Virus record (IMG/VR): IMGVR_UViG_3300025021_000154
Span: 1 to 64,000 of that record
DNA from: a virus
Taxonomy: Duplodnaviria > Caudoviricetes
Length of the DNA stretch: 64,000 nucleotides
Direction: 5' to 3' (one strand)
This document shows, in pieces, positions 22,998 through 34,120 of the stretch. The position numbers were made by a program, and so were the translations under genes. Each line of letters opens with the position of its first letter. Position 1 is the stretch's first letter. The notes under the pieces are model-generated. The model did not search any database. It saw only the letters and a program-made list of their open reading frames with translations, and was not told where the DNA came from.

Positions 22998-24521
22998 ATG
23001 GCAGTAACCGACAAGGAGCGCAAACTCGCGGCGACCCTGAGCGATCCCGTGTTGTGGGGGCAAGCCTACCTCTACAACCGGGATGGCTCAGGCCGCGACT
23101 ACTGGCCGCATCAGGTGGAGGACCTGCGCTGTCTGGCCAGGAACATCATTCACCTCGACGGCCGGGACGTGGGCAAGTCCATTGTGCTCTCGACCGACGC
23201 GCTCCATTACGCCTTCACCACCCGGGGTGGCCAGGGCCTGATAGCGGCCCCGCACCAGGGGCACCTCGACAGCATTATCGAGGAGATCGAGTACCAGCTC
23301 GACACCAACCCGGATCTGATGAACAGCATCGCCCTGACCAAGTACGGCAAGCCCAAGATCAACCGCAAACCCTACTTCCGGCTGGAGTTCACCAATGGCT
23401 CGGTGCTCTATTTCCGTCCGGCTGGGGCCTATGGTGATTCCTTTCGGTCTCTGCATGTGGGCCGCGTCTGGGTCGATGAGGGAGCTTGGCTGACGGAGCG
23501 GGCCTGGAAGGCGCTGCGCCAGTGCCTCAAGACGGGGGGAATTCTGCGCATCTACTCCACGCCCAACGGCCTGCGCGACACCACCTACTACCGGCTCACC
23601 TCGTCCGACCAGTTCCATGTGTTCCGCTGGCCGTCCTGGCTCAATCCGCTCTGGACCGAGGACCGCGAGTCTGAACTGCTGGAATTCTATGGCGGCCGGG
23701 ACAGCTCCGGCTGGCAGCACGAGGTGGCCGGTGAACACGGCAAGCCCTCCTATGGGGCCTTCAATGTCGAGCAGTTCAACCTCTGTCGGCAGGATCTGCT
23801 GGAGTATCAGAAGATCGTCATCACCGATTCCGAGCTGCGCGATTGCGACACCGAGGAAGCGGCCCACGACCGGCTGGAGATGCTGCTCAACCTCACGCCC
23901 CGCAGCGGGCAGTTCTGGGTTGGCGGCGACCTGGGCTACACCAACGATCCTACCGAGATCATTGTTTTCCAGGAAATGGAGGTCGGCGAGCGGACCCTGC
24001 TGAAGATGATCCTGCGCGTGCATCTGGAACACGTTTCCTATCCGCACATCGCCCAGATCTTCGCCCTGCTGGAGCGGTACTACACCCCGGCAGGCATCGG
24101 CGTGGACAACGGCGGTAATGGACTGGCCGTGGTGCAGGAACTGCTCACTCTGGACAAATACAGGGGGCTGGAGCTGGAAGGCAGGCTCAAGGGATACGAC
24201 TTCGGCGGCATGACCCGACTGGCGGTGCGGGACGGCAAGGAAATCAAGAAACGGACCAAGGAGCTGATGACCAGCCTCATCAACGGGGCACTGCAACGCA
24301 AGCAGCTCATTTTCCCCTCCGACGACCTGGAGGTGGAAGACCAGTTCACCACCCACACCTACACCCTGCGGGACGGCAAGATCATCTATTCCAAGGGCAA
24401 CGACCACATCATCGACGCGGTGCGCTGCGCCATGCTGATCCGGGAGGAAGGCAACCTCGACCCGGTCGGTGAAGAGGTGGTCTCGCTCAACCCCGTGCTC
24501 ACCAACCCGATTTTTATCTGA
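22998..24521 (+). CDS. Terminase large subunit
   Basis: GRDVGKS Walker A, VWVDEG Walker B, STPNG, GGDLG and DHIIDA nuclease motifs. Confidence 0.92.
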   Translation: MAVTDKERKLAATLSDPVLWGQAYLYNRDGSGRDYWPHQVEDLRCLARNIIHLDGRDVGKSIVLSTDALHYAFTTRGGQGLIAAPHQGHLDSIIEEIEYQLDTNPDLMNSIALTKYGKPKINRKPYFRLEFTNGSVLYFRPAGAYGDSFRSLHVGRVWVDEGAWLTERAWKALRQCLKTGGILRIYSTPNGLRDTTYYRLTSSDQFHVFRWPSWLNPLWTEDRESELLEFYGGRDSSGWQHEVAGEHGKPSYGAFNVEQFNLCRQDLLEYQKIVITDSELRDCDTEEAAHDRLEMLLNLTPRSGQFWVGGDLGYTNDPTEIIVFQEMEVGERTLLKMILRVHLEHVSYPHIAQIFALLERYYTPAGIGVDNGGNGLAVVQELLTLDKYRGLELEGRLKGYDFGGMTRLAVRDGKEIKKRTKELMTSLINGALQRKQLIFPSDDLEVEDQFTTHTYTLRDGKIIYSKGNDHIIDAVRCAMLIREEGNLDPVGEEVVSLNPVLTNPIFI

Positions 24522-24610: not shown

Positions 24611-24684
24611 CCGGCATCAAGCCGGGTTCGGCCCATACGGGCCGGATGTGCGGCTGTCATTGCCGAAACTACCGAGAGGATCAC

Positions 24685-26193
24685 GTGGAAAGCACCGCCC
24701 ATCAGGACGAACAATCGGAAAGCCTGGACACCACCGGCTTTGTCATCGCGCCACTGGCAGCAGCGGCCGCCCTCGATTCAGCCGCCTTCAGTAAGGTCAA
24801 CGCCGCCGAGGCGATTCCGGCCACCTGGGAGGAACGCGCCCGCAAGGCCTGGGAATACTACGTCGAGGAGCCGCTGGTGAAGAACTGCGTCAACTCCTGG
24901 CGCACCTTCGCCGTGGGCGACGAAATCAAGATCACCAGCGATGACGAGAACCTCAAGGAGCAGGCCTTGGAGGCCGCCTGGCGGCTGAACATCTCGCAAT
25001 TCATCAAGGACATGGTCCTTCAGCTCCTGGTGAAAGGAGACGCCATCGGCTTCAAGCGTTTCACCCAGTCCGGCCAGGACATCGAGGAGCTGGTCTGCGT
25101 CAACCCGGTTTCGGTCAAGGTCAAATACGCCCAGGGCGAGCTGATCGAGGCCCGGCAATTTCCCGAGGACACACCCGGCGGCGGCGACTCCATCCCGCTG
25201 CCCGTCGAGCAGGTGGTCCACCTCAAATGGGACGCTCCGGCCTTTTCGCCCCGGGGCAATTCTCTCGTGCTTCCCGCCTTTCAGGCCATCGAACTGCTAC
25301 GCGACTACCGCCGGGCCGAACAGGCCATCGCCAAGCGCTGGGCCACGCCGTTCCGCCTGCTCAAGGTGGGCGGCGCGTTCGGGCAAAAGATGGTGATGCC
25401 GGACCAGCGGATGCTCGAACAGGTTCGCGACATGGTCAACAAGATGGACATGAAAAGTGGCCTGGTGGTGCCGTTCTACGTCAATGTCGAAACTCATGGC
25501 ACCGACGGCCAGGTTCTCAATGTCGAGGACAAGGTCAAGGAGGTGAAGGAAGACGTCGTGGTGGCCCTGGGACTGTCGCGCTCGCTGGTGACCGGTGATG
25601 GCCCGAATTTCGCCACCGCCTCGGTAAGCATGCAGAAGATGATGGTCATGATCCGCGAGATCAAACAGGCCGCACGCAAGCTCCTCGACTGGGTGTTCGA
25701 CGACTGGATGGAGCTGCGCGGCCAGGGCGACAAAACTCTCCAGTTCATCTTCAACGACCTCGACCCCAGCGACGCGGTCGATTTCAAGAAACTCCTCATC
25801 GAACTCTACGACCGCAAGCTCATCAGCCGTTCCAGCCTCCAGCTCAAGATGGACTTGGACCCGGACATCGAGACCGCCAATCGCGAAACCGAGAGTAAGA
25901 AGATCGACCTGATGGACGAAAAGCAGGTGAAGCCCGTGGTGGATATGGTTGTCTCGGGCATCCTGAGTGTGCCTCGCGCCAGAAAGATGCTCGGGATTCC
26001 TGCCGAGGACAACGAGACTTCAGCAGAGGCCGCGCTCGTCTGGTCAGGAGATCTGGAATCCACCGGCGATGCGGCCGTGTGCGACGAGTGCAGCCATTTC
26101 GACACGGCCACCAACCACTGCCGGGTCCACAACAGCGAGCGCACCTTCGACGCCCCGGCCTGTCGTTTCATCGACCGCCGGGAGCCCCGCTGA
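24685..26193 (+). CDS. Portal protein
   Basis: Follows terL; VVHLKW...PRGNSLVLPA..., LGLS..L; GTG start at 24685 with GAGGA; C-terminal 4-Cys motif. Confidence 0.85.
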   Translation: MESTAHQDEQSESLDTTGFVIAPLAAAAALDSAAFSKVNAAEAIPATWEERARKAWEYYVEEPLVKNCVNSWRTFAVGDEIKITSDDENLKEQALEAAWRLNISQFIKDMVLQLLVKGDAIGFKRFTQSGQDIEELVCVNPVSVKVKYAQGELIEARQFPEDTPGGGDSIPLPVEQVVHLKWDAPAFSPRGNSLVLPAFQAIELLRDYRRAEQAIAKRWATPFRLLKVGGAFGQKMVMPDQRMLEQVRDMVNKMDMKSGLVVPFYVNVETHGTDGQVLNVEDKVKEVKEDVVVALGLSRSLVTGDGPNFATASVSMQKMMVMIREIKQAARKLLDWVFDDWMELRGQGDKTLQFIFNDLDPSDAVDFKKLLIELYDRKLISRSSLQLKMDLDPDIETANRETESKKIDLMDEKQVKPVVDMVVSGILSVPRARKMLGIPAEDNETSAEAALVWSGDLESTGDAAVCDECSHFDTATNHCRVHNSERTFDAPACRFIDRREPR

Positions 26194-29100
26194 TGTCATC
26201 GGACCTCAAGCAGCGCATCCAGGCGGCTACTCTGAAGAGCCTGACGGCCCGCAACCTCTACAACGACCAGATCACGGCCCAGCTCACCCAGGCGCTGAAA
26301 CAGGCTGAGGACGAGGTCGCCCGCGCCATCCTCCAGTACCGCTCCCTCGGCTCGCTGCCGGACAACAAGCTCGCCGCCCTCAAGGGGCTGGAAAAGCTCC
26401 AGCTCGAACTCGACGACACCATGAAGCGGCTCAAGCGGGAGCAGACCCTGGTTTATCGCAAGACGACCAAGGACTCCTTCAAGCTCGGCATCCAACAGGG
26501 AATCGGAGAGTTCGCCGACGCGGCGCTGCCGTTCTATGCCGACTTGAAACCCGAAGGCATCGATAAGCTGGCCACCAAGGTCTTCACCATCGTCGACACC
26601 AGTGCCCTCGACTTCATGGCGCAATACAACCTCACGCTCGCCGGTGACGTCCATCGCGAGCTCTCAGACGGCATCAAGCGCACCATCCTGAACGGCATCG
26701 CCACGGGCAAGGGAGCCGACGATATCGTCCGGGACATGGGCAAGGTGATCATCGACAAGGATTCCTTCCGCCAGGCCGGAAGCCGGGTGTTCAGCAAGGC
26801 CCAGTACCGCATGGAGATGATCGCCCGCACCGAGGTCCTCCGCGCCCACAACATGGGCAGGCTCAAGTTCCACGAGCGGGTCGGCATCCAGAAGCTGGAA
26901 TGGCTGGCTATGGAAGACGAGCGCATGTGCCCGGTCTGTGGCGGCCTGGACGGCAAGACCTTTCCCATCGACAAGTTCCCCCAGCAACCCGCGCATCCGC
27001 ATTGCCGCTGCACCAACGTCGTGGCCTGGCCGATGACCGTCTGCGGCAGCGAGATGGTTGCCAAGGCCGCCGCCCAGGCATCGCAGGGGGACGCCTGCAT
27101 TCTCCCGCCCCACGTGCTGGAAGGCATGGCCGATGCCCAGGCCAAGGAGAACGCCAAGCTCAAGAGCGCCTTTGAAAATGGCGACATCACCGAGCTCGGC
27201 TCGTTGACGGTCAAACAGCTCCAGACCCTGGCGAAACAGAACGGCGTGGCCATCGCCCGGACCAAGGCCGATTTCATCAAGCTGCTCGATCTGGCCGAGC
27301 CGGGAATCGATCATGGTGACCTGGCCGGAGCGGCGCTCAGCGCCAAGCTCAAGGAACACAAGATCGGCCTGCTGCGGAGCAAGGACGAACTGATCGAGTT
27401 GCTCGGACTGAAGCAGGCGGAACTCAAACAGGCCAAGTTGCTCGCCGCTCAGATGGCGAAGATTCCGCCCGCCGAGGGGCTGGAGGGCATGACCGCCCAG
27501 CAGCTCAAGGAGATGGCGAAGGAGAACAGCATCTCCCTCAACATGACCAAGCAGGAGACCATCGAGCTGCTCGACAAGCTGGAGCCCGGCGTGGACCACA
27601 GCGGACTGATGGGCAAGGAACTCGCGGCAGCCAAGCAGAAGCACGGTATCGGCATTCTCAAGAACAAACAGCAGCTCGTCGAGGCGCTGCAGAAGAAGGC
27701 CGGTACCGACATGGCCGAGTCCGTCAAGCAAAAGGCGGTCTCTGACGCCAAGCAGAAGCTGATCCAGAAACAGAAAACGGCCCTCGAAGACGCCGCAAAG
27801 GCAGTGGTCGTTCCCGACTCGCCGACAGGCTACAAGGATTTCCTCGACACGATTGCCAAGGCGGAACAGGCGGTTTCCGTCGGCACCGATCTGCCCCAGG
27901 AGATGCTTGCGGCCCACAGCAAGGAAATCGCCTTCAAGAAACAGCTCTTCCAGGACCAGATCGGCAAGCTGAAATCGACCGAGCTCAAGACACTCGCTAA
28001 GGAGACCAAGGTCCAGTATTGGCAATGGGCCAACAAAGACGAGCTGACCACGCTCTTTACAGAGACCGACCCGGGGAAAATCAAGGCGGTTCAGGCGAGC
28101 ATCGACGCCAAGCATGCCGCCTGGGCCGAAAAACATGGCGGCAAGAAGAAAGCAGCGCAAGCCAAGCCCATCACTCCGAAAAAGGAGCCGCCGAGTCCGG
28201 TAAAGCCGTCCGAGGCCAAGATCGGCAAGAAAGGTGCGGAGTTCTCAGACGCCGATTCTGCATGGCAGCAAAAGGGACTGCCGTCAAAATTCAAGAAATC
28301 CGGCAAGGCCGCTGTCGGCGGCGCACATGAAAAGGAGTTCTGGACCGACGAGAACGGCGACAAATGGCTGTTCAAACCCAATGGCCGCAAGGACGATGAG
28401 TTCATCGCCTTTGGAGAGGAGGCCGCCTACAAGATCGGCCGTCTGATCGATCCCCACGCCATCGAGGTCCGGACCATCCAGTTGAACGGCCGCATCGGTT
28501 CCATCCAGAAATGGCGCACCGATCTGCGGGACGACTTCGATTTCCGCAACATCCTGCCTCAGGATCTGACCACCATCGAACTGGAACAGATCCAGCGCGA
28601 GCACGTGGTCGACTGGCTGATCGCCAACCACGACGGGCATTCCAAGCAGTTCATCCGTGCCAGGGACGGTCGCGTCCACGGCATCGACAAAGGCCAGGCT
28701 TTCAAGTTCCTGGGACAGGACAAACTCTCGCTCGATTACCACCCCAACGGGGCGTGCGGTGAGGAAGAGCCGTTTTACAACAAGGTCTTCCGGGCGGCCA
28801 AGGAAGGGAAGGTGCGGGTCGATCCGAACGCGACGCTTCGCTACATCCACGAAGTCGAAAAGATCGCCGACGAGGATTATCTCGGTCTGCTGCGGCCCTA
28901 CGCCGAGGGCCGGTTCGCCAAGGACCCGGCCGGGCTGAGGCATTTTTACGATCTGGCCCTGGAACGAAAGCACAATCTCCGGCGGGACTTCGAGGCTTAT
29001 TACGCCGATGTGCTGGGGGATCGTGGATTCCGTTTCGACAAGCTGACCGCCGCCACCGGCAAGAAAAAGCTGCTCTCCTCCGCCGAGGAAGCCCTGGTCG

Positions 29101-30764
29101 AGGAAGCCCGCAAACTCGGCTGGCAAGGCAAGACATTGCCCTTCGACAGCGGCGACGTGGAGGATCAGAACGCGCTGATTTTCACCGAAACCTTCAAAGG
29201 GAAAAAGCGCACCGTGGTCAAGATGAAGATCCGGCCGGACACCGACCGCCGCATCGACGAGCTGCTGCGCAAGTACGTGCAGACCACTGCCGGAGAAAAG
29301 GGGCAACCGCTAAACGAAGACAACTTTTTCGAGACCGTTCTGGACGCCGTCAAGAACGTCAATTTCCACGTCGGTGACGGCAAGTACAACCGGACCAAGA
29401 TCGACAAGGCCCTGCGCCTGCGCAAGAAACTCGAGGCCCTGCAAAAAAGCGCCGATCCCAAGGTCAAAGAAATGGCGGACCACTATCTGAAATGGGTCAA
29501 GGAGATCGAGGAGTCCGTCGATTGGGACCGGGCCACCAACGGTGTTTTCGAGCAGTACCTGCCCAAGCTCGACGCACAGAAACCCAAGGAGAAACCGCCG
29601 TTCAAGGTGGAACGCGGCAAGGTGACCCACGCCAAGCGTAAGATCGGTTCCGGCACCATCAGCGTCGAGGCCGACGACGTCGACAACCGGACCCTGTTCA
29701 ATCACAACTCCCGCATGCAGGACGGGCATCAGTACACCGTGACTTTCGAGGACGGCACCCGAGTCCGCTATCGGCCTTGGACTGACACCAACCTTTACGC
29801 CCAGCGCGGCGAGCTGGAAATGATCCTGGATGGCGACACCACCCCCGGACGGGTCGAGGCCATGTTGGAAAAGCTCGAACAGCTCGGGATCGATACCCGG
29901 GTGGCCACGGCGGAAAACGCCGAACAGATGTATCTGGAGAAGCTCGCCTACATCCGCAAGACCGACAAGAGCGCCGACTACAAACGGCTGCAGAAATCCC
30001 TCGACGACCGCAACGCCACCACCCCCGAGCGGGTCCAGGCCCTGCGCGGCTATTGGCAAAAGGAATTTGGCGTCCAGGACATAACCCAGCTTTCCGGATA
30101 CAACCCGCTGGGCGAATACCAGGCAGGTTTTCTGGACCGCGACGCCAAGGGCGGGTACCGGCACCAGTTCCGATTCGATATCACCGAGGAAGATCTTGAA
30201 AAACAGATGAAAGGCTATTCGCTGGTCCACGACTTGACCAACGGCGAGAGCATGTCCGGCTTCATCGACTCGATCATGGAGAACAACGGAGCCATGGTCA
30301 GCACGGTCGAGAAGATGCGCATGGGTGTGGCTCCGGGTGGAATGTCCCCGGTGGCCGACATGCAGACCGGCGGCGCGAGCTATTTTTTCACCCGGATCAA
30401 GAAACAACCGGTCAGCGATGCTTCACCGGCGCTCTACTTCAAGAAACAGATGCTGCGGCGCATGGACGCCATCAGCTACGACCATGACGCCTACGGCAAG
30501 GTGATAGACGACTACGTGCAGCGCAACCGGGGGGCCAGCATCGACGACTGGAAGCGGTTCTCGCAACGCCATGGCAACGAGACCATCTTCAAATACTCGG
30601 TGACGCTGTTGGACAACATCGAGTTCGTCGTGGCCCGCAGCGACAACGAACGCCGGGAGATCATCCAGACTTTCACCCGGCGCGGCATCAAGAAACTATC
30701 TGACGGGCGCAAGGTGGAGGACATCGTCCATACCCCGCAAAGCTGGAGCAAACGCAAACAATGA
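26193..30764 (+). CDS. MuF/gp7-like minor head protein with large C-terminal extension (HeH repeats, PI3/4K-HipA-like kinase, possible ART)
   Basis: IARTE..RAHN..G, W..DERMCPVC...PAHPHCRC; 1523 aa from ATG 26193 overlapping the portal stop. Confidence 0.88.
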   Translation: MSSDLKQRIQAATLKSLTARNLYNDQITAQLTQALKQAEDEVARAILQYRSLGSLPDNKLAALKGLEKLQLELDDTMKRLKREQTLVYRKTTKDSFKLGIQQGIGEFADAALPFYADLKPEGIDKLATKVFTIVDTSALDFMAQYNLTLAGDVHRELSDGIKRTILNGIATGKGADDIVRDMGKVIIDKDSFRQAGSRVFSKAQYRMEMIARTEVLRAHNMGRLKFHERVGIQKLEWLAMEDERMCPVCGGLDGKTFPIDKFPQQPAHPHCRCTNVVAWPMTVCGSEMVAKAAAQASQGDACILPPHVLEGMADAQAKENAKLKSAFENGDITELGSLTVKQLQTLAKQNGVAIARTKADFIKLLDLAEPGIDHGDLAGAALSAKLKEHKIGLLRSKDELIELLGLKQAELKQAKLLAAQMAKIPPAEGLEGMTAQQLKEMAKENSISLNMTKQETIELLDKLEPGVDHSGLMGKELAAAKQKHGIGILKNKQQLVEALQKKAGTDMAESVKQKAVSDAKQKLIQKQKTALEDAAKAVVVPDSPTGYKDFLDTIAKAEQAVSVGTDLPQEMLAAHSKEIAFKKQLFQDQIGKLKSTELKTLAKETKVQYWQWANKDELTTLFTETDPGKIKAVQASIDAKHAAWAEKHGGKKKAAQAKPITPKKEPPSPVKPSEAKIGKKGAEFSDADSAWQQKGLPSKFKKSGKAAVGGAHEKEFWTDENGDKWLFKPNGRKDDEFIAFGEEAAYKIGRLIDPHAIEVRTIQLNGRIGSIQKWRTDLRDDFDFRNILPQDLTTIELEQIQREHVVDWLIANHDGHSKQFIRARDGRVHGIDKGQAFKFLGQDKLSLDYHPNGACGEEEPFYNKVFRAAKEGKVRVDPNATLRYIHEVEKIADEDYLGLLRPYAEGRFAKDPAGLRHFYDLALERKHNLRRDFEAYYADVLGDRGFRFDKLTAATGKKKLLSSAEEALVEEARKLGWQGKTLPFDSGDVEDQNALIFTETFKGKKRTVVKMKIRPDTDRRIDELLRKYVQTTAGEKGQPLNEDNFFETVLDAVKNVNFHVGDGKYNRTKIDKALRLRKKLEALQKSADPKVKEMADHYLKWVKEIEESVDWDRATNGVFEQYLPKLDAQKPKEKPPFKVERGKVTHAKRKIGSGTISVEADDVDNRTLFNHNSRMQDGHQYTVTFEDGTRVRYRPWTDTNLYAQRGELEMILDGDTTPGRVEAMLEKLEQLGIDTRVATAENAEQMYLEKLAYIRKTDKSADYKRLQKSLDDRNATTPERVQALRGYWQKEFGVQDITQLSGYNPLGEYQAGFLDRDAKGGYRHQFRFDITEEDLEKQMKGYSLVHDLTNGESMSGFIDSIMENNGAMVSTVEKMRMGVAPGGMSPVADMQTGGASYFFTRIKKQPVSDASPALYFKKQMLRRMDAISYDHDAYGKVIDDYVQRNRGASIDDWKRFSQRHGNETIFKYSVTLLDNIEFVVARSDNERREIIQTFTRRGIKKLSDGRKVEDIVHTPQSWSKRKQ

Positions 30765-31273
30765 CCATGAAGGACTTTATCGAACAGGAGAAAGGGCGGC
30801 TGCAGGAAGCGCTGCACTGGTTCAACAGCCGGGGCAGCCGCATGACTGTCAGGGAATCCGGGGATCTCTTTCTGGATACCCTGGTGGGCAGCTTCACCGT
30901 CACCCGGATCGGCCCCCATTTCGATTCCGCTGGCAACCACCTGCGCACCGATTTCTGGCTGTTGTGGAAGGCGCTGGGCTACGACGAGGGCTTTCAGCAC
31001 GCCCACACCGTCAAGGTCGTCGATGTCAGGATCGAAGACACCCTGACGGCCGAACATGACGGCAAGGAGGTCGAAGGCTGGCTGATTGTCGATCTGACCG
31101 ACGACCTGGGCCGGGTTCACCATGTCGAAATGATCGAGCCCGTTTCCGAACCCGAACTCGCGGCGGACTGGCAAAGATGGATCGCCTACCGGCAGAAAAA
31201 CGCCGAGAGATTCCGCCGGATCGACGACCAGCTTCTGGCCGAGCATCTCAGAATTGCGGAGGATTGGTCATGA
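30761..31273 (+). CDS. Hypothetical protein, candidate MuF immunity
   Basis: 170 aa, translationally coupled to MuF. Confidence 0.6.
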   Translation: MTMKDFIEQEKGRLQEALHWFNSRGSRMTVRESGDLFLDTLVGSFTVTRIGPHFDSAGNHLRTDFWLLWKALGYDEGFQHAHTVKVVDVRIEDTLTAEHDGKEVEGWLIVDLTDDLGRVHHVEMIEPVSEPELAADWQRWIAYRQKNAERFRRIDDQLLAEHLRIAEDWS

Positions 31274-31623
31274 AACTGCGCTACATGATCGACTCGATAT
31301 TGGTCGACCGGCGAGCCTCCGTTCCAGAATACGTGCCCGTGGGTGTATGGGTTCAGGGGCCGGGTCCCGGCCTGGATGTGGAGATGTACTACCTCGACCG
31401 GGGACCGGATGGGCTGGTCGACCGCAAGGACGAGGCCGCCTGGGTGGTCAACCGTCTGGTCGAGGCCGGGGCCACTTCGCTTCCGGCGGATTTTCTCGAA
31501 TACCACCGGCTGTCCCGCTCTCCCTACGACGGGGTCTTTTCGGAGATTGCCGAGATCGACGAATACCCCTCCCTCGACGCCTGCGGCAAAGCCGTTCTGG
31601 CCCGGCTGAACAACGCCATCTGA
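31270..31623 (+). CDS. Hypothetical protein, candidate MuF immunity
   Basis: 117 aa from ATG 31270 (ATGA overlap), acidic. Confidence 0.6.
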   Translation: MKLRYMIDSILVDRRASVPEYVPVGVWVQGPGPGLDVEMYYLDRGPDGLVDRKDEAAWVVNRLVEAGATSLPADFLEYHRLSRSPYDGVFSEIAEIDEYPSLDACGKAVLARLNNAI

Positions 31624-31638
31624 AATTCGCCGTCACCC

Positions 31639-31670
31639 TCCGACACATCGCCGACGCTTCCGGTAAGTAA
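31639..31670 (+). promoter_or_regulatory. Phage-sigma promoter motif copy 6 (head operon)
   Basis: TCCGAC-N14-TCCGGTAAGTAA. Confidence 0.78.
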
Positions 31671-31723
31671 CCGCTGAACGCTCCCCGCAGATCGCGGAGA
31701 GCCCAGCAAATTAACCGGAGACG

Positions 31724-34120
31724 TTGATGGAACTGTTCGCCACAGACCTGGAAAGGCTGGCGTTTCTACTGGAGGCCGATGCGGCGCTGACCTGCGATCC
31801 TGACGAGCTCGGGACGGAGGCCGCCGATCAGTCCGCTCCTGAAGAGCTTCCTCCCGAGAAGCGCCCCAAGTACATCACCAACTACATCGGTAGTAAGCAG
31901 AAACTCGTTGACTGGATCTGGAAGCATACCCCCGAGGGCGTTGGCACCGTGCTCGACGCCTTCTCGGGGTCTGCGGTCGTGGCCTACATGTACAAGACCA
32001 AGGGCCTCCAGGTCATCGCCAACGACCGGCTGCGCTACTGCCACCACGCCGCCAAGGCGATTATCGAGAACAACTCGGTTCGCCTGAGCGAGGACGAAAT
32101 CGAGGCGCTCCTGGCCGACAACGCCAAGGCTGGCAGCTTCGTTCAGGACAATTTCAAGGGGATCTTTTTTGCCAAGGGCGTCCATGCGCTGATCGATACG
32201 ATCCGCGCCAACTGCGACAAACTCTCCGGCATCAAAAAAGACATCGCCCTGTTTGGCCTGGGCAAGACCTGCATGAGCGGCAAAGGTGGTTTCGGTCATT
32301 TTTCATCCTCAACCGACTACGGTCGACGCAAGGACACGCCAGAGGAATTCAAAGACCGTTTGCGCAAGAACCTGCAACGCATCAATGCGCTGGTCTTCGA
32401 CAACGGCAAGGAGAACAAGGCCCACCGCCAAGACATCAACGATCTGCTGCCCAAGGCCAAGGCGGATCTGGCCTATTTCGACCCGCCTTACGCCACCGAA
32501 TTTTCCACCACCAATTACGAGCGAGCCTACCACTTCGTGGAGGGGCTCATGACCTATTGGGACGGCCTCGAGATCAAGGCCGACACCAAGGTCAAGTATT
32601 ACGAGACCGACCACAAGACGGTCACCAAGGGTAATGCCAGCGAGTTTTTCCAGACCTTTCTCGGCAATGCCAAGCACATCCGACACTGGCTGATCTCCTA
32701 CCGCGATCACGCTTATCCGAATGAGCAGGAGATGAAGAAAATCATCAGTTCATTCGGCAAGCAAAGCCAGATGAAATCGAAAGATCACCATTACGCGATC
32801 ACCTCCAGGCACGGAGATGCCTCCAACGCCAAGGAACGGCTGTTCGTCTGCATCCCTGGCTCAACAGCCAAAGCGGAGCAAGAGATGAAACCGGTGCCGC
32901 TGGCCGCTGCTGCGAATTTCCACACCAGCATCCCCGTGGACATCCGGCTGGGCGACAGCGAACGCCTCACTGCCGAAGCCATGGATGTCGGGGCACCGGG
33001 CGACCCCCAGTTCAGTTTCGTGCTCTGCCGTACCGGCACCAACAAGAACGGCGACCACTTCACCGCCGAGGAGTTGTCCGGTCGGCACATGACGGCCGTG
33101 AACAAGAAGGTCGATCTGCAGCACTCTCAGGAGTTCAACGACATCGTCGGTGGCGTCGTCGCCGCCGATTATCTGGAAGACGACAACGGCGGCCGGGTCG
33201 AATGCGTCGGCGAACTGTACGTCCACGACACACCGGCGGCTCGACTCGCCTACAAGCTGATGAAGCGCGGGATCATCTCCCAGGTTTCCATGGAATGTGA
33301 TTACCAGGAAGGCGAATGCTCGGTCTGCCACAAGCGCTTTCAAAACAAGGCCGACTACTGCACGCACCTGCGCAAGTTCAAGGGCCGTGATTTCAACGGC
33401 CAACCCGTCTTCGAAATACTGCAGGGTGTCACTTTCACGGGACTGGGCCTGCTCGACCGCAAGGGTGCGGACGAGAACGCCCGAATTCTGCAGGTGGCAT
33501 CGATTCAGAGCCAACCCGACCAATCCCAACCCGAAGGAGATTCCACGATGGAAGACAAAACCAAACCCAACGATGACCCGGCCGCCAAGACTGAATCAGA
33601 CGCGGCCAAGAAGAAACCGGCCCAGCAGGAAGGCGATCCTGCCCGTGTTTCCGACCTGGAAAAGGAAAACCGGCAGCTCAAGGCCCAGGTGGCCGAGTTG
33701 CAGAAACGCGTCCAGGAACTGGAAGCTGAGCAAAAAGCCGCAGCCTGCCGTTCCCGGGCGAAGAAGCTCCTGACCCGTCTGGAGAAGCAGGGACTCTCCT
33801 TTGCCTCCGAAGTGGACCGTGACGCCGAACTCAAACGCCTGGCGGAACTGTCCGACGAAGCCTTCACCGCCACCGAGGCGGCCTACGAGCGTCTGCCCAA
33901 ATCGGCCAAGGAAGAGAAACTCGCAGCCAATGACCAGGGGGACAAGCCCGCCGCCAAGGCATCGACGGAACAACCGCTGCGCAGCGACGCCGGTGTCCGA
34001 CCCCACGATGTGGACGACCGCAAGGTGTCGCTCGAAGACCGTCTGCGCGACGGGTTCATGGCCGCTTACCGCAACCGTGTCGGCGAGGACTCTCCCGAAC
34101 ACTCGGAAATCAACGCATAA
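31724..34120 (+). CDS. D12/Dam-class N6-adenine DNA methyltransferase fused to prohead protease and scaffold
   Basis: NYIGSKQKL, DAFSGSAVV, FDPPY; then NKNGD, DLQH, VSME, CSVC..CTH, FTGLGLL protease motifs; then coiled coil; occupies the protease slot before the capsid gene (start TTG 31724 or ATG 31727). Confidence 0.85.
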   Translation: MMELFATDLERLAFLLEADAALTCDPDELGTEAADQSAPEELPPEKRPKYITNYIGSKQKLVDWIWKHTPEGVGTVLDAFSGSAVVAYMYKTKGLQVIANDRLRYCHHAAKAIIENNSVRLSEDEIEALLADNAKAGSFVQDNFKGIFFAKGVHALIDTIRANCDKLSGIKKDIALFGLGKTCMSGKGGFGHFSSSTDYGRRKDTPEEFKDRLRKNLQRINALVFDNGKENKAHRQDINDLLPKAKADLAYFDPPYATEFSTTNYERAYHFVEGLMTYWDGLEIKADTKVKYYETDHKTVTKGNASEFFQTFLGNAKHIRHWLISYRDHAYPNEQEMKKIISSFGKQSQMKSKDHHYAITSRHGDASNAKERLFVCIPGSTAKAEQEMKPVPLAAAANFHTSIPVDIRLGDSERLTAEAMDVGAPGDPQFSFVLCRTGTNKNGDHFTAEELSGRHMTAVNKKVDLQHSQEFNDIVGGVVAADYLEDDNGGRVECVGELYVHDTPAARLAYKLMKRGIISQVSMECDYQEGECSVCHKRFQNKADYCTHLRKFKGRDFNGQPVFEILQGVTFTGLGLLDRKGADENARILQVASIQSQPDQSQPEGDSTMEDKTKPNDDPAAKTESDAAKKKPAQQEGDPARVSDLEKENRQLKAQVAELQKRVQELEAEQKAAACRSRAKKLLTRLEKQGLSFASEVDRDAELKRLAELSDEAFTATEAAYERLPKSAKEEKLAANDQGDKPAAKASTEQPLRSDAGVRPHDVDDRKVSLEDRLRDGFMAAYRNRVGEDSPEHSEINA

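Follow-up and report, generated by a model that had tools for sequence, protein, structure and literature searches.

A predicted HipA/PI4KII-like kinase linked to ADP-ribosyltransferases on a polyvalent MuF head protein of tailed phages

The first 64,000 nucleotides of the virus record IMGVR_UViG_3300025021_000154 (Duplodnaviria; Caudoviricetes), which form the window analysed here and are a portion of the 89-kb IMG/VR record, encode a large head protein in which a MuF capsid anchor is followed by SAP/HeH repeats, a kinase domain, a 370-residue module and a DarT-like ADP-ribosyltransferase (ART). The predicted kinase fold and its intact-looking active site are as well established as computation allows, and the kinase family is coupled to two unrelated classes of ADP-ribosyltransferase, the DarT-like and the R-S-E class. 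We consider it fairly probable (about 60%) that this catalytically intact-looking kinase of the HipA/CtkA/type-II-PI4K branch is a module of a polyvalent MuF head protein and that, together with the transferase, it serves as an effector delivered from the capsid. Placing effectors on MuF proteins is a known strategy, but the literature that we searched contained no description of this HipA/PI4KII-like kinase family or of its regular coupling to ADP-ribosyltransferases.

Fold and active site of the kinase domain

The kinase domain was modelled with AlphaFold2 using an alignment of 40 relatives (A1) as input, which gave a predicted local distance difference test score (pLDDT) of 91.3 and a predicted template modelling score (pTM) of 0.87. 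In the N-lobe of the model, three strands surround the Gly loop and Lys728; after them come a long alpha-C helix and two further strands ending in Q772 (residues are numbered from the Met encoded by the ATG at 26193). The N-lobe is followed by a helix carrying D807 and W808, the catalytic loop and a five-helix C-lobe (model helices 192-272). The model and the fold searches place the domain among the atypical protein-kinase folds, in the HipA/CtkA/PI4KII-like branch, at 28236..29015 on the + strand. The original prediction, made from the DNA sequence, had assigned a PI3/PI4K-HipA-like kinase to 28300-28990; the location was right, but the folded domain is slightly larger.

A Foldseek search of the model against the PDB returned 500 rows at E<=1e-3, every one of them a kinase, with CtkA first (E 3e-6) followed by PI4KII-alpha, RIO, HipA and MavQ. 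This search had been named in the original prediction as a check that would speak against it if no kinase fold emerged, and a kinase fold was found. With VIA, a structure aligner that is independent of Foldseek, PI4KII-alpha gave a Z score of 16.0 with 237 of about 260 residues aligned and a root-mean-square deviation of 3.7. CtkA (Z 13.8), Fam20 (13.2) and MavQ (12.4) came next, and ATM, PI4KIII, HipA and actin-fragmin kinase gave Z scores of about 10-11, the HipA structures ranging from 9.3 to 10.5. The nearest folds are a mixture of protein kinases (CtkA, HipA, Fam20) and lipid kinases (PI4KII, MavQ). In sequence comparisons the window protein matched HipA_C (PF07804) with 19.2 bits and an E-value of 0.001 over the catalytic-loop stretch only, and TIGR03843 with an E-value of 0.003. 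Among the 40 relatives, Pfam matches to HipA_C occurred in 11 (best 2.9e-8) and to PI3_PI4_kinase in two (4.7e-8). The PI3/PI4K-HipA type of fold that had been proposed is thus borne out by the model, the fold searches, the Pfam matches of the relatives and the conservation of catalytic residues.

The active-site motifs were mapped on the basis of the model secondary structure and the sequence pattern. All five motifs that had been recognized originally are present where they had been located, in one frame of the + strand open reading frame (ORF). The Gly-rich loop GGAHEK (28317..28334, +; G709, G710 and K714) lies between model strands 1 and 2, and strand 3 contains WLFKP (28365-28379, +) with the codon of the ATP-binding Lys728 at 28374..28376. 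The alpha-C motif EEAAYKI (28416-28436, +) has an acidic residue at E742 and the Glu at E743. The catalytic loop DWLIANHDGHSKQ (28611..28649, +; D814, H816 and Q819) conforms to D-x-H-x-x-N, the pattern seen in PI3/4K and Hip kinases, except that Gln replaces Asn, and the metal-binding 'DFG-equivalent' is IDKGQAF (28683..28703, +; D832, K833 and Q835).

Conservation was assessed in 215 domain copies that were cut by a local hidden Markov model from the best 150 of 1461 clusters of relatives, these 150 proteins sharing 31-69% identity with the query. In the Gly loop G709 is kept in 153 copies, G710 in 182 and K714 in 153. Position 728 is Lys in 194 copies, with a gap in 19 of the remainder. The alpha-C Glu is the weakest motif, with an acidic residue at position 742 in 127 copies and Glu at 743 in 102. 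Q772 at the end of the last N-lobe strand is found in 178 copies. Around the catalytic loop D807 is present in 199, W808 in 198, H813 in 189, D814 in 197 and H816 in 164 copies (Lys in 33), and in the IDKGQAF motif D832 is kept in 197, K833 in 195 and Q835 in 192; copies that do not match at the catalytic positions nearly all have gaps there. This deep conservation rules out chance or a wrong reading frame as the origin of the motifs. The Gln that had been noted in place of Asn also recurs, position 819 being Gln in 101 copies and Asn in 92, and a split of this kind across the family indicates that Gln819 is a family trait and not a lesion. The exchange in the D-x-H-x-x-N pattern is conservative and affects the position of the usual metal-binding Asn.

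Two kinase copies were found in 59 of the 150 relatives (e.g. P0015, P0023, P0033 and P0045). In most of these tandem arrangements the loop of copy 1 reads HD.K..N, the form known from classical protein kinases, and that of copy 2 reads HD.H..N, the form of PI3K and HipA; the other catalytic residues are intact in both. Since all catalytic residues are kept, a pseudokinase was rejected as the main interpretation of the domain.

The kinase family and its ADP-ribosyltransferase partners

To delimit the family we used an exhaustive phmmer search with query residues 670-969 against 1.84 billion representatives. Counted at 50% identity, at least 1461 clusters reach E<=1e-3, and 349 of them reach E<=1e-30. 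The best 150 clusters are nearly all proteins of 900-5800 residues in which the domain is embedded, and the few shorter ones look like fragments. The kinase occurs in prophages of Desulfobacterota, Gammaproteobacteria, Acidobacteriota and Armatimonadota and also in actinophages, and it moves between otherwise unrelated polyvalent architectures. Other partner domains in the family are XkdF protease, SLT, 2H phosphoesterase, topoisomerase IB and ParB_N, which belong to the polyvalent-protein repertoire. In public resources the family goes under 'unknown function' (PHROGs) or 'minor capsid protein' (GenBank), and the window kinase has no significant Pfam match.

The last 580 residues of the window protein were modelled with 40 relatives, giving a pLDDT of 89.4. 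The kinase is followed by a well-predicted middle module of ~370 residues (29064..30173, +) with alpha/beta parts and a three-helix bundle, for which structure searches returned only helical-bundle and weak TBP-like rows (Z 6-8.5; TBP-like about 6), none of them convincing. The final ~195 residues (30174..30758, +) are predicted to adopt a DarT-like ADP-ribosyltransferase fold. With VIA the top four rows were DarT structures, namely E. coli C7 DarT1 (Z 11.0, 164 residues aligned) and the enzymes from Thermosipho (10.3), Thermus (10.0) and M. tuberculosis (9.6). Foldseek matched Thermus and Thermosipho DarT with a probability of 0.95-0.99, yet with E-values of only 0.03-0.06. A candidate H-Y-E triad is formed by H1346, Y1397 and E1463, each of which is kept in 39 of 40 aligned relatives; the H-Y-E motif defines the ARTD class and is found in DarT2 (PMC11543638). 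The module gave no Pfam match, an ESM Atlas look-up with the C-terminal 235 residues returned unnamed clusters only, and a homologue search with the DarT-like domain retrieved almost only the same ~1520-residue orthologues. Because there is neither a sequence-level match nor a residue-level superposition, we regard the assignment of the C-terminal domain as a DarT-like ADP-ribosyltransferase as probable and not as certain. A 349-residue fragment (P0169) that is 96% identical to the part encoded by window positions 30174-30761 carries the name 'ribosomal protein S6' in its JGI record. The window protein has a weak match to Ribosomal_S6 (E 0.04-0.07), and the name is probably a mis-annotation that spilled over from this match.

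The DarT-like module is present in 77 of the 150 kinase-bearing relatives. It follows the last kinase in 77/77 and forms the extreme C terminus in 75. The middle module was found in 52 of the 150, and in 51 of the 150 it occurs together with the kinase and the DarT-like domain. Thirty-six of the remaining relatives that have a tail after the kinase were scanned against Pfam, which gave matches to ADPrib_exo_Tox (15), ART (6), ART-PolyVal (2), DRAT (1) and NUDIX (13). In an alignment of these other proteins one Arg and one Glu in the C-terminal region are kept in at least 90% of the rows, and many of the relatives that do not have the DarT-like module possess a transferase of the R-S-E type. 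The tight connection between kinase and transferase suggests that both may act on one target in sequence.

Head-module context and distribution of the prophage

In the window the genes for the large terminase (terL), the portal and the MuF protein are consecutive. The terL gene (22998-24521) lies upstream of the portal gene (24646..26193, +), which was identified by phrog_2739 (portal, E 3.7e-81) and by Pfam Portal_Mu with 27.1 bits vs a cut-off of 23.9. The gene for the MuF polyvalent head protein (26193..30764, +; 1523 residues plus stop) starts with an ATG at 26193 that shares a base with the portal stop codon in a TGATG overlap. Its MuF (SPP1 gp7-like) head-morphogenesis domain (26670..27014, +) matches PF04233 with an E-value of 7.2e-16 and phrog_115 (minor head protein) with 4.6e-26. 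The PF04233 score of 59.4 bits, against a curated cut-off of 29.6, and the location of the gene, which comes straight after those for terminase and portal, confirm the MuF identity given in the original prediction. MuF/gp7 proteins are minor head components in phages with the portal-terminase system. The profile phrog_6577 ('unknown function') spans residues 39-1365 of the protein.

Between the MuF domain and the kinase there are three SAP/HeH/Rho-N-like helix repeats (27204..28010, +) starting at 27204, 27489 and 27969. Their Pfam matches are weak in the window protein (Rho_N E 0.02, SAP E 0.19) and significant in relatives (SAP 5.6e-5, Rho_N 5.2e-5), and the repeats are probably DNA-binding. 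The protein has the make-up by which polyvalent proteins are recognized, with MuF domain, repeats, kinase and DarT-like transferase in one chain that is encoded between portal and protease-scaffold genes. It is colinear over its whole length, at 57-98% identity, in ~70 IMG/VR contigs, and its 90%-identity cluster has 647 members, for which the only names given are minor capsid protein or SPP1 gp7 family protein.

Two small genes follow directly. A gene of 170 codons (30761..31273, +) is coupled to the MuF stop and is syntenic in 129 of 152 related loci, and a gene of 117 codons (31270..31623, +) is coupled to the former and syntenic in 124 of the 152; neither product has a Pfam or PHROG match. 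No recognizable immunity, macrodomain or NADAR signature was found in them with Pfam and PHROG. The 170-residue protein diverges faster than the portal, with about 44-57% vs 70-83% identity in the same loci, and taken together the two small proteins show 44-68% identity where the portal or the methylase-protease shows 70-89%. Pfam searches of the MuF protein and these two gene products gave no match to HipA N-terminal subdomains or to a HipS/HipB partner. Downstream lies a gene at 31724..34120 (+) in which a D12-class DNA adenine methyltransferase (PF02086, 5.6e-26) is fused to a prohead protease and a coiled-coil scaffold (Peptidase_S78 and Trimer_CC weak; phrog_27806 end to end). It is a single ORF of 798 residues, by which a second enzyme is apparently routed into the capsid. 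The module of portal, MuF, 170-codon, 117-codon and methylase-protease genes is syntenic in >120 loci.

The block of head genes at 25001-32200 recurs at 92-96% nucleotide identity, with a constant G+C fraction of ~0.61, in other genomes (loci L075, L076, L081, L085, L086, L091, L145 and L148). Isolates that carry it are Desulfosarcina alkanivorans, Desulfocarbo indianensis, Desulfobulbus rhabdoformis, Desulfofustis glycolicus and the gammaproteobacterium Ectothiorhodospira shaposhnikovii, and it was also found in metagenome-assembled genomes (MAGs) labelled Verrucomicrobiota and Hydrogenedentales. With isolate hosts of different classes, this spread is unusually broad for one prophage lineage. 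The 90% cluster of the MuF protein also takes in Marinobacter, Sessilibacter, Geobacter, Syntrophobacter and Desulfarculus; isolate genomes that have the prophage according to the records are those of Desulfarculus baarsii DSM 2075, Marinobacter sp. C1S70, Geobacter anodireducens and Syntrophobacter fumaroxidans. The 9.1-Mb Bryobacterales MAG OZ252029.1 contains at least four copies of the kinase gene with 66-67% identity to the window (loci L132/L133/L147/L126), which points to several related prophages in one host.

Comparison with known systems and proposed role

Iyer, Burroughs, Anand, de Souza and Aravind (2017) described fusions of effectors to MuF, including zeta-toxin kinases, and a kinase family in polyvalent proteins (PMC5512222). 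The window protein resembles their polyvalent proteins in that several enzymes are joined in one chain whose gene lies among virion genes, in having a MuF anchor and an ART partner, and in its predicted role as a packaged and injected protein. The kinase clade of these authors has lost the C-terminal subdomain, carries Gln in the final strand of the N-lobe and Glu ahead of strand 2, is closer to Ser/Thr/Tyr kinases and occurs mainly in Verrucomicrobia-Chlamydia and Bacteroidetes; a link between kinase and ART is not stated (PMC5512222). Compared by description only, the window domain shares the Gln, as Q772 (178/215 copies), and the Glu before strand 2 corresponds to E713, but this residue is present in only 34/215 copies. 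It differs from that clade by its helical C-lobe, its likeness to PI4KII, CtkA and HipA, and its taxonomic spread. The remark in the original prediction that a kinase is less familiar on MuF holds for the MuF toxins of Jamet et al. (2017), who list no kinase among them, and is qualified by the polyvalent kinases and MuF-fused zeta-toxin kinases of Iyer et al. When the literature was searched for phage head proteins with a HipA-like or CtkA-like kinase, nothing specific emerged, and no study of the window protein came to light.

With HipA and HipT, for which Asp210 and His212 of HipT are the catalytic residues (PMC10627512), the domain shares the catalytic-loop pattern N-x-D-x-H-x-K-N/Q and a Gly-rich loop G-G/A-x-x-x-K, and HipA_C is the commonest Pfam match in the family. 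However, the HipA N-terminal subdomains and a HipB/HipS partner were not found, and the HipA_C score of the window protein is under the cut-off. There is also no conserved Ser before the Gly loop for control by autophosphorylation, the corresponding positions being K/N/G and L/V/I, and the domain is located inside a head protein and not in a toxin-antitoxin operon. The closest solved folds, those of H. pylori CtkA (JHP0940) and human PI4KII-alpha, share only 13-16% identity with the domain. CtkA is a stand-alone secreted kinase and PI4KII a membrane lipid kinase, and neither is fused to virion or ART domains. The C-terminal domain resembles DarT of DarTG systems in fold (Z 9.6-11.0 to four structures) and in its conserved H, Y and E candidates, but the identity is 8-12%, there is no Pfam match and no DarG or NADAR partner was detected adjacent to the gene. 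Fused to a head protein, a DarT-like domain would work for the phage rather than against it.

The mycobacteriophage proteins McProf gp54 and Onyinye gp16 are fusions of MuF/VG15 and ART that are annotated as 'minor capsid and ADP-ribosyltransferase'. They resemble the window protein in possessing the kinase (BFVD match with a template modelling score of 0.72), in their place after terminase and portal, and in the C-terminal ART. Unlike in the window protein, this ART is of the R-S-E type (PF03496) and the N-terminal anchor matches VG15 and not PF04233. The kinase portion is unannotated in the mycobacteriophage records. In McProf gp54 it covers residues 472-731 (34% identity, E 1e-36). The possibility that the 'ADP-ribosyltransferase' label refers to the kinase domain was rejected, since PF03496 maps to residues 1007-1176 of the same protein. 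Functional precedents are T4 Alt, a head-packaged and injected ART, and the T7 kinase, which phosphorylates host proteins early in infection (both as cited in PMC5512222). T4 Alt and T7 gp0.7 are precedents in function only; their activities reside on separate proteins, and the T7 kinase is expressed after entry and not carried by the virion.

According to the interpretation that we favour, a few copies of the protein would be built into the capsid via the MuF domain and exit along with the DNA when the phage infects. Once inside the new host, the ATP-using kinase and the transferase, which uses nicotinamide adenine dinucleotide (NAD+), would then modify host targets, and the outcome may be that takeover is aided or defence blunted, resembling the action of T4 Alt and the T7 kinase. 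The ejection of such effectors is inferred on the basis of published work on MuF and polyvalent proteins (PMC5512222, PMC5576092), and according to earlier proposals MuF fusions and polyvalent proteins are packaged in the head and injected as effectors (PMC5512222; PMC9503650). For the kinase we lean slightly toward a protein as the substrate.

Several observations weigh against this capsid-delivered kinase effector. The HipA_C score of 19.2 bits falls under the curated Pfam cut-off of 30.5. Both profile and single-sequence (phmmer) searches of PDB sequences with the domain gave no kinase, so that the assignment rests on the predicted fold and the motifs. The profile from alignment A1 retrieved only ARTs from the PDB (Vip2, 1qs2) since other domains of the long members dominated it, and a domain-only profile (A2) gave no kinase, the only match being a spurious one of an iota-carbonic-anhydrase repeat to the WLFKP region. 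A Gln at the position of the usual metal-binding Asn is unusual. Furthermore, a protein of ~170 kDa must unfold or be cleaved for passage through the tail, and within the lineage it is colinear in ~70 contigs with a C terminus that is not swapped. Such whole-protein colinearity means that the protein could equally be a fixed structural or assembly component.

Although we consider it unlikely, kinase and transferase could carry out two steps of one chemistry on the same target instead of acting as independent effectors. As an example, which is equally doubtful, the DarT-like domain might ADP-ribosylate DNA held by the SAP/HeH repeats and the kinase might phosphorylate the adduct or prime the target; that the resulting mark would resist host reversal enzymes such as macrodomains or NADAR is likewise unlikely. 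The kinase is almost never found without a C-terminal ART, the ARTs come from two unrelated clades (DarT-like in 77/150, R-S-E in many others), and the order is always kinase and then transferase. NUDIX, also an ADP-ribose/NAD enzyme, co-occurs in 13/36, and repeats of a DNA-binding type are present on the same chain. However, the idea is drawn from co-occurrence alone, the pairing counts cover the best 150 of 1461 clusters, and we know of no protein-kinase-fold enzyme that phosphorylates an ADP-ribose adduct or DNA, which weighs against it. Polyvalent proteins moreover mix domains promiscuously, with ART as a hub domain (PMC5512222), so that the co-occurrence may reflect shared delivery only. 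Less likely still is a stricter form in which kinase and transferase depend on each other as one obligate machine and together place a compound mark on a single target. We give the same low weight to the example in which an ADP-ribose adduct becomes phosphorylated while the SAP/HeH repeats hold the host or phage DNA that carries it. If this were true, the mark would be beyond removal by DarG, NADAR or macrodomain enzymes. It would then be a capsid-delivered modification of nucleic acid or protein of a new kind, and it could help one prophage lineage to become established across hosts from several bacterial classes.

A MuF polymorphic toxin for interbacterial competition in the sense of Jamet et al. 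(2017), with the two small downstream genes encoding immunity proteins, appears as improbable as the obligate machine. In its favour are the MuF N terminus with enzymatic C-terminal domains, the two coupled small genes that are syntenic in 124-129 of 152 loci and evolve faster than their neighbours, pretoxin HINT domains in one family member, and the occurrence of relatives as prophages in bacterial genomes. The C-terminal region is, however, not polymorphic in the lineage, and full-length colinearity (57-98% identity in ~70 contigs) makes a toxin of this type less plausible here, even though the type of C-terminal ART does change across the wider kinase family. The small genes, with no immunity, macrodomain or NADAR signature, could be head-assembly genes, and the MuF gene is situated inside the head module with the portal on one side and the protease-scaffold gene on the other. 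Slightly further down in likelihood we rank a lipid or small-molecule kinase that acts, e.g., on a membrane lipid or a nucleotide-derived defence signal and not on a protein. The top structural match is indeed the lipid kinase PI4KII-alpha (Z 16.0, 237 residues aligned), the Legionella lipid kinase MavQ reaches 12.4, and the motifs IDKGQAF and NHDGHSKQ presumably resemble the IDNG and DRGNDN motifs of PI4KII. On the other hand, the protein kinases CtkA, Fam20 and HipA are likewise among the top matches, relatives match HipA_C (11/40) more than PI3_PI4_kinase (2/40), and no membrane-binding element was noticed, in an inspection that was not a rigorous test. That the domain has no enzymatic role in infection, but serves the head structurally or in assembly or is a pseudokinase that only binds nucleotides, is very improbable. 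The fixed, colinear nature of the whole protein as a head-module component of the lineage and the Gln in place of the canonical Asn would fit such a role, but the phosphotransfer residues are all kept across 150 diverged proteins and in both tandem copies, unlike what would be expected of a spacer or a pseudokinase, and the domain shuttles among otherwise unrelated polyvalent architectures.

That enzymes can enter the host as cargo of the phage head is known, but few of them have been studied. The tie of this kinase to two unrelated ART classes, and often to NUDIX, hints that phosphorylation and NAD+/ADP-ribose chemistry are connected, in a way not yet explored, as infection begins, on the same ground where DarT, Thoeris and other NAD+-based defences act. 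The presence of a near-identical prophage in different host classes raises the question whether cargo of this kind supports a broad host range. Since named isolates carry the prophage, the connection between phosphorylation and ADP-ribose chemistry may be testable in culture.

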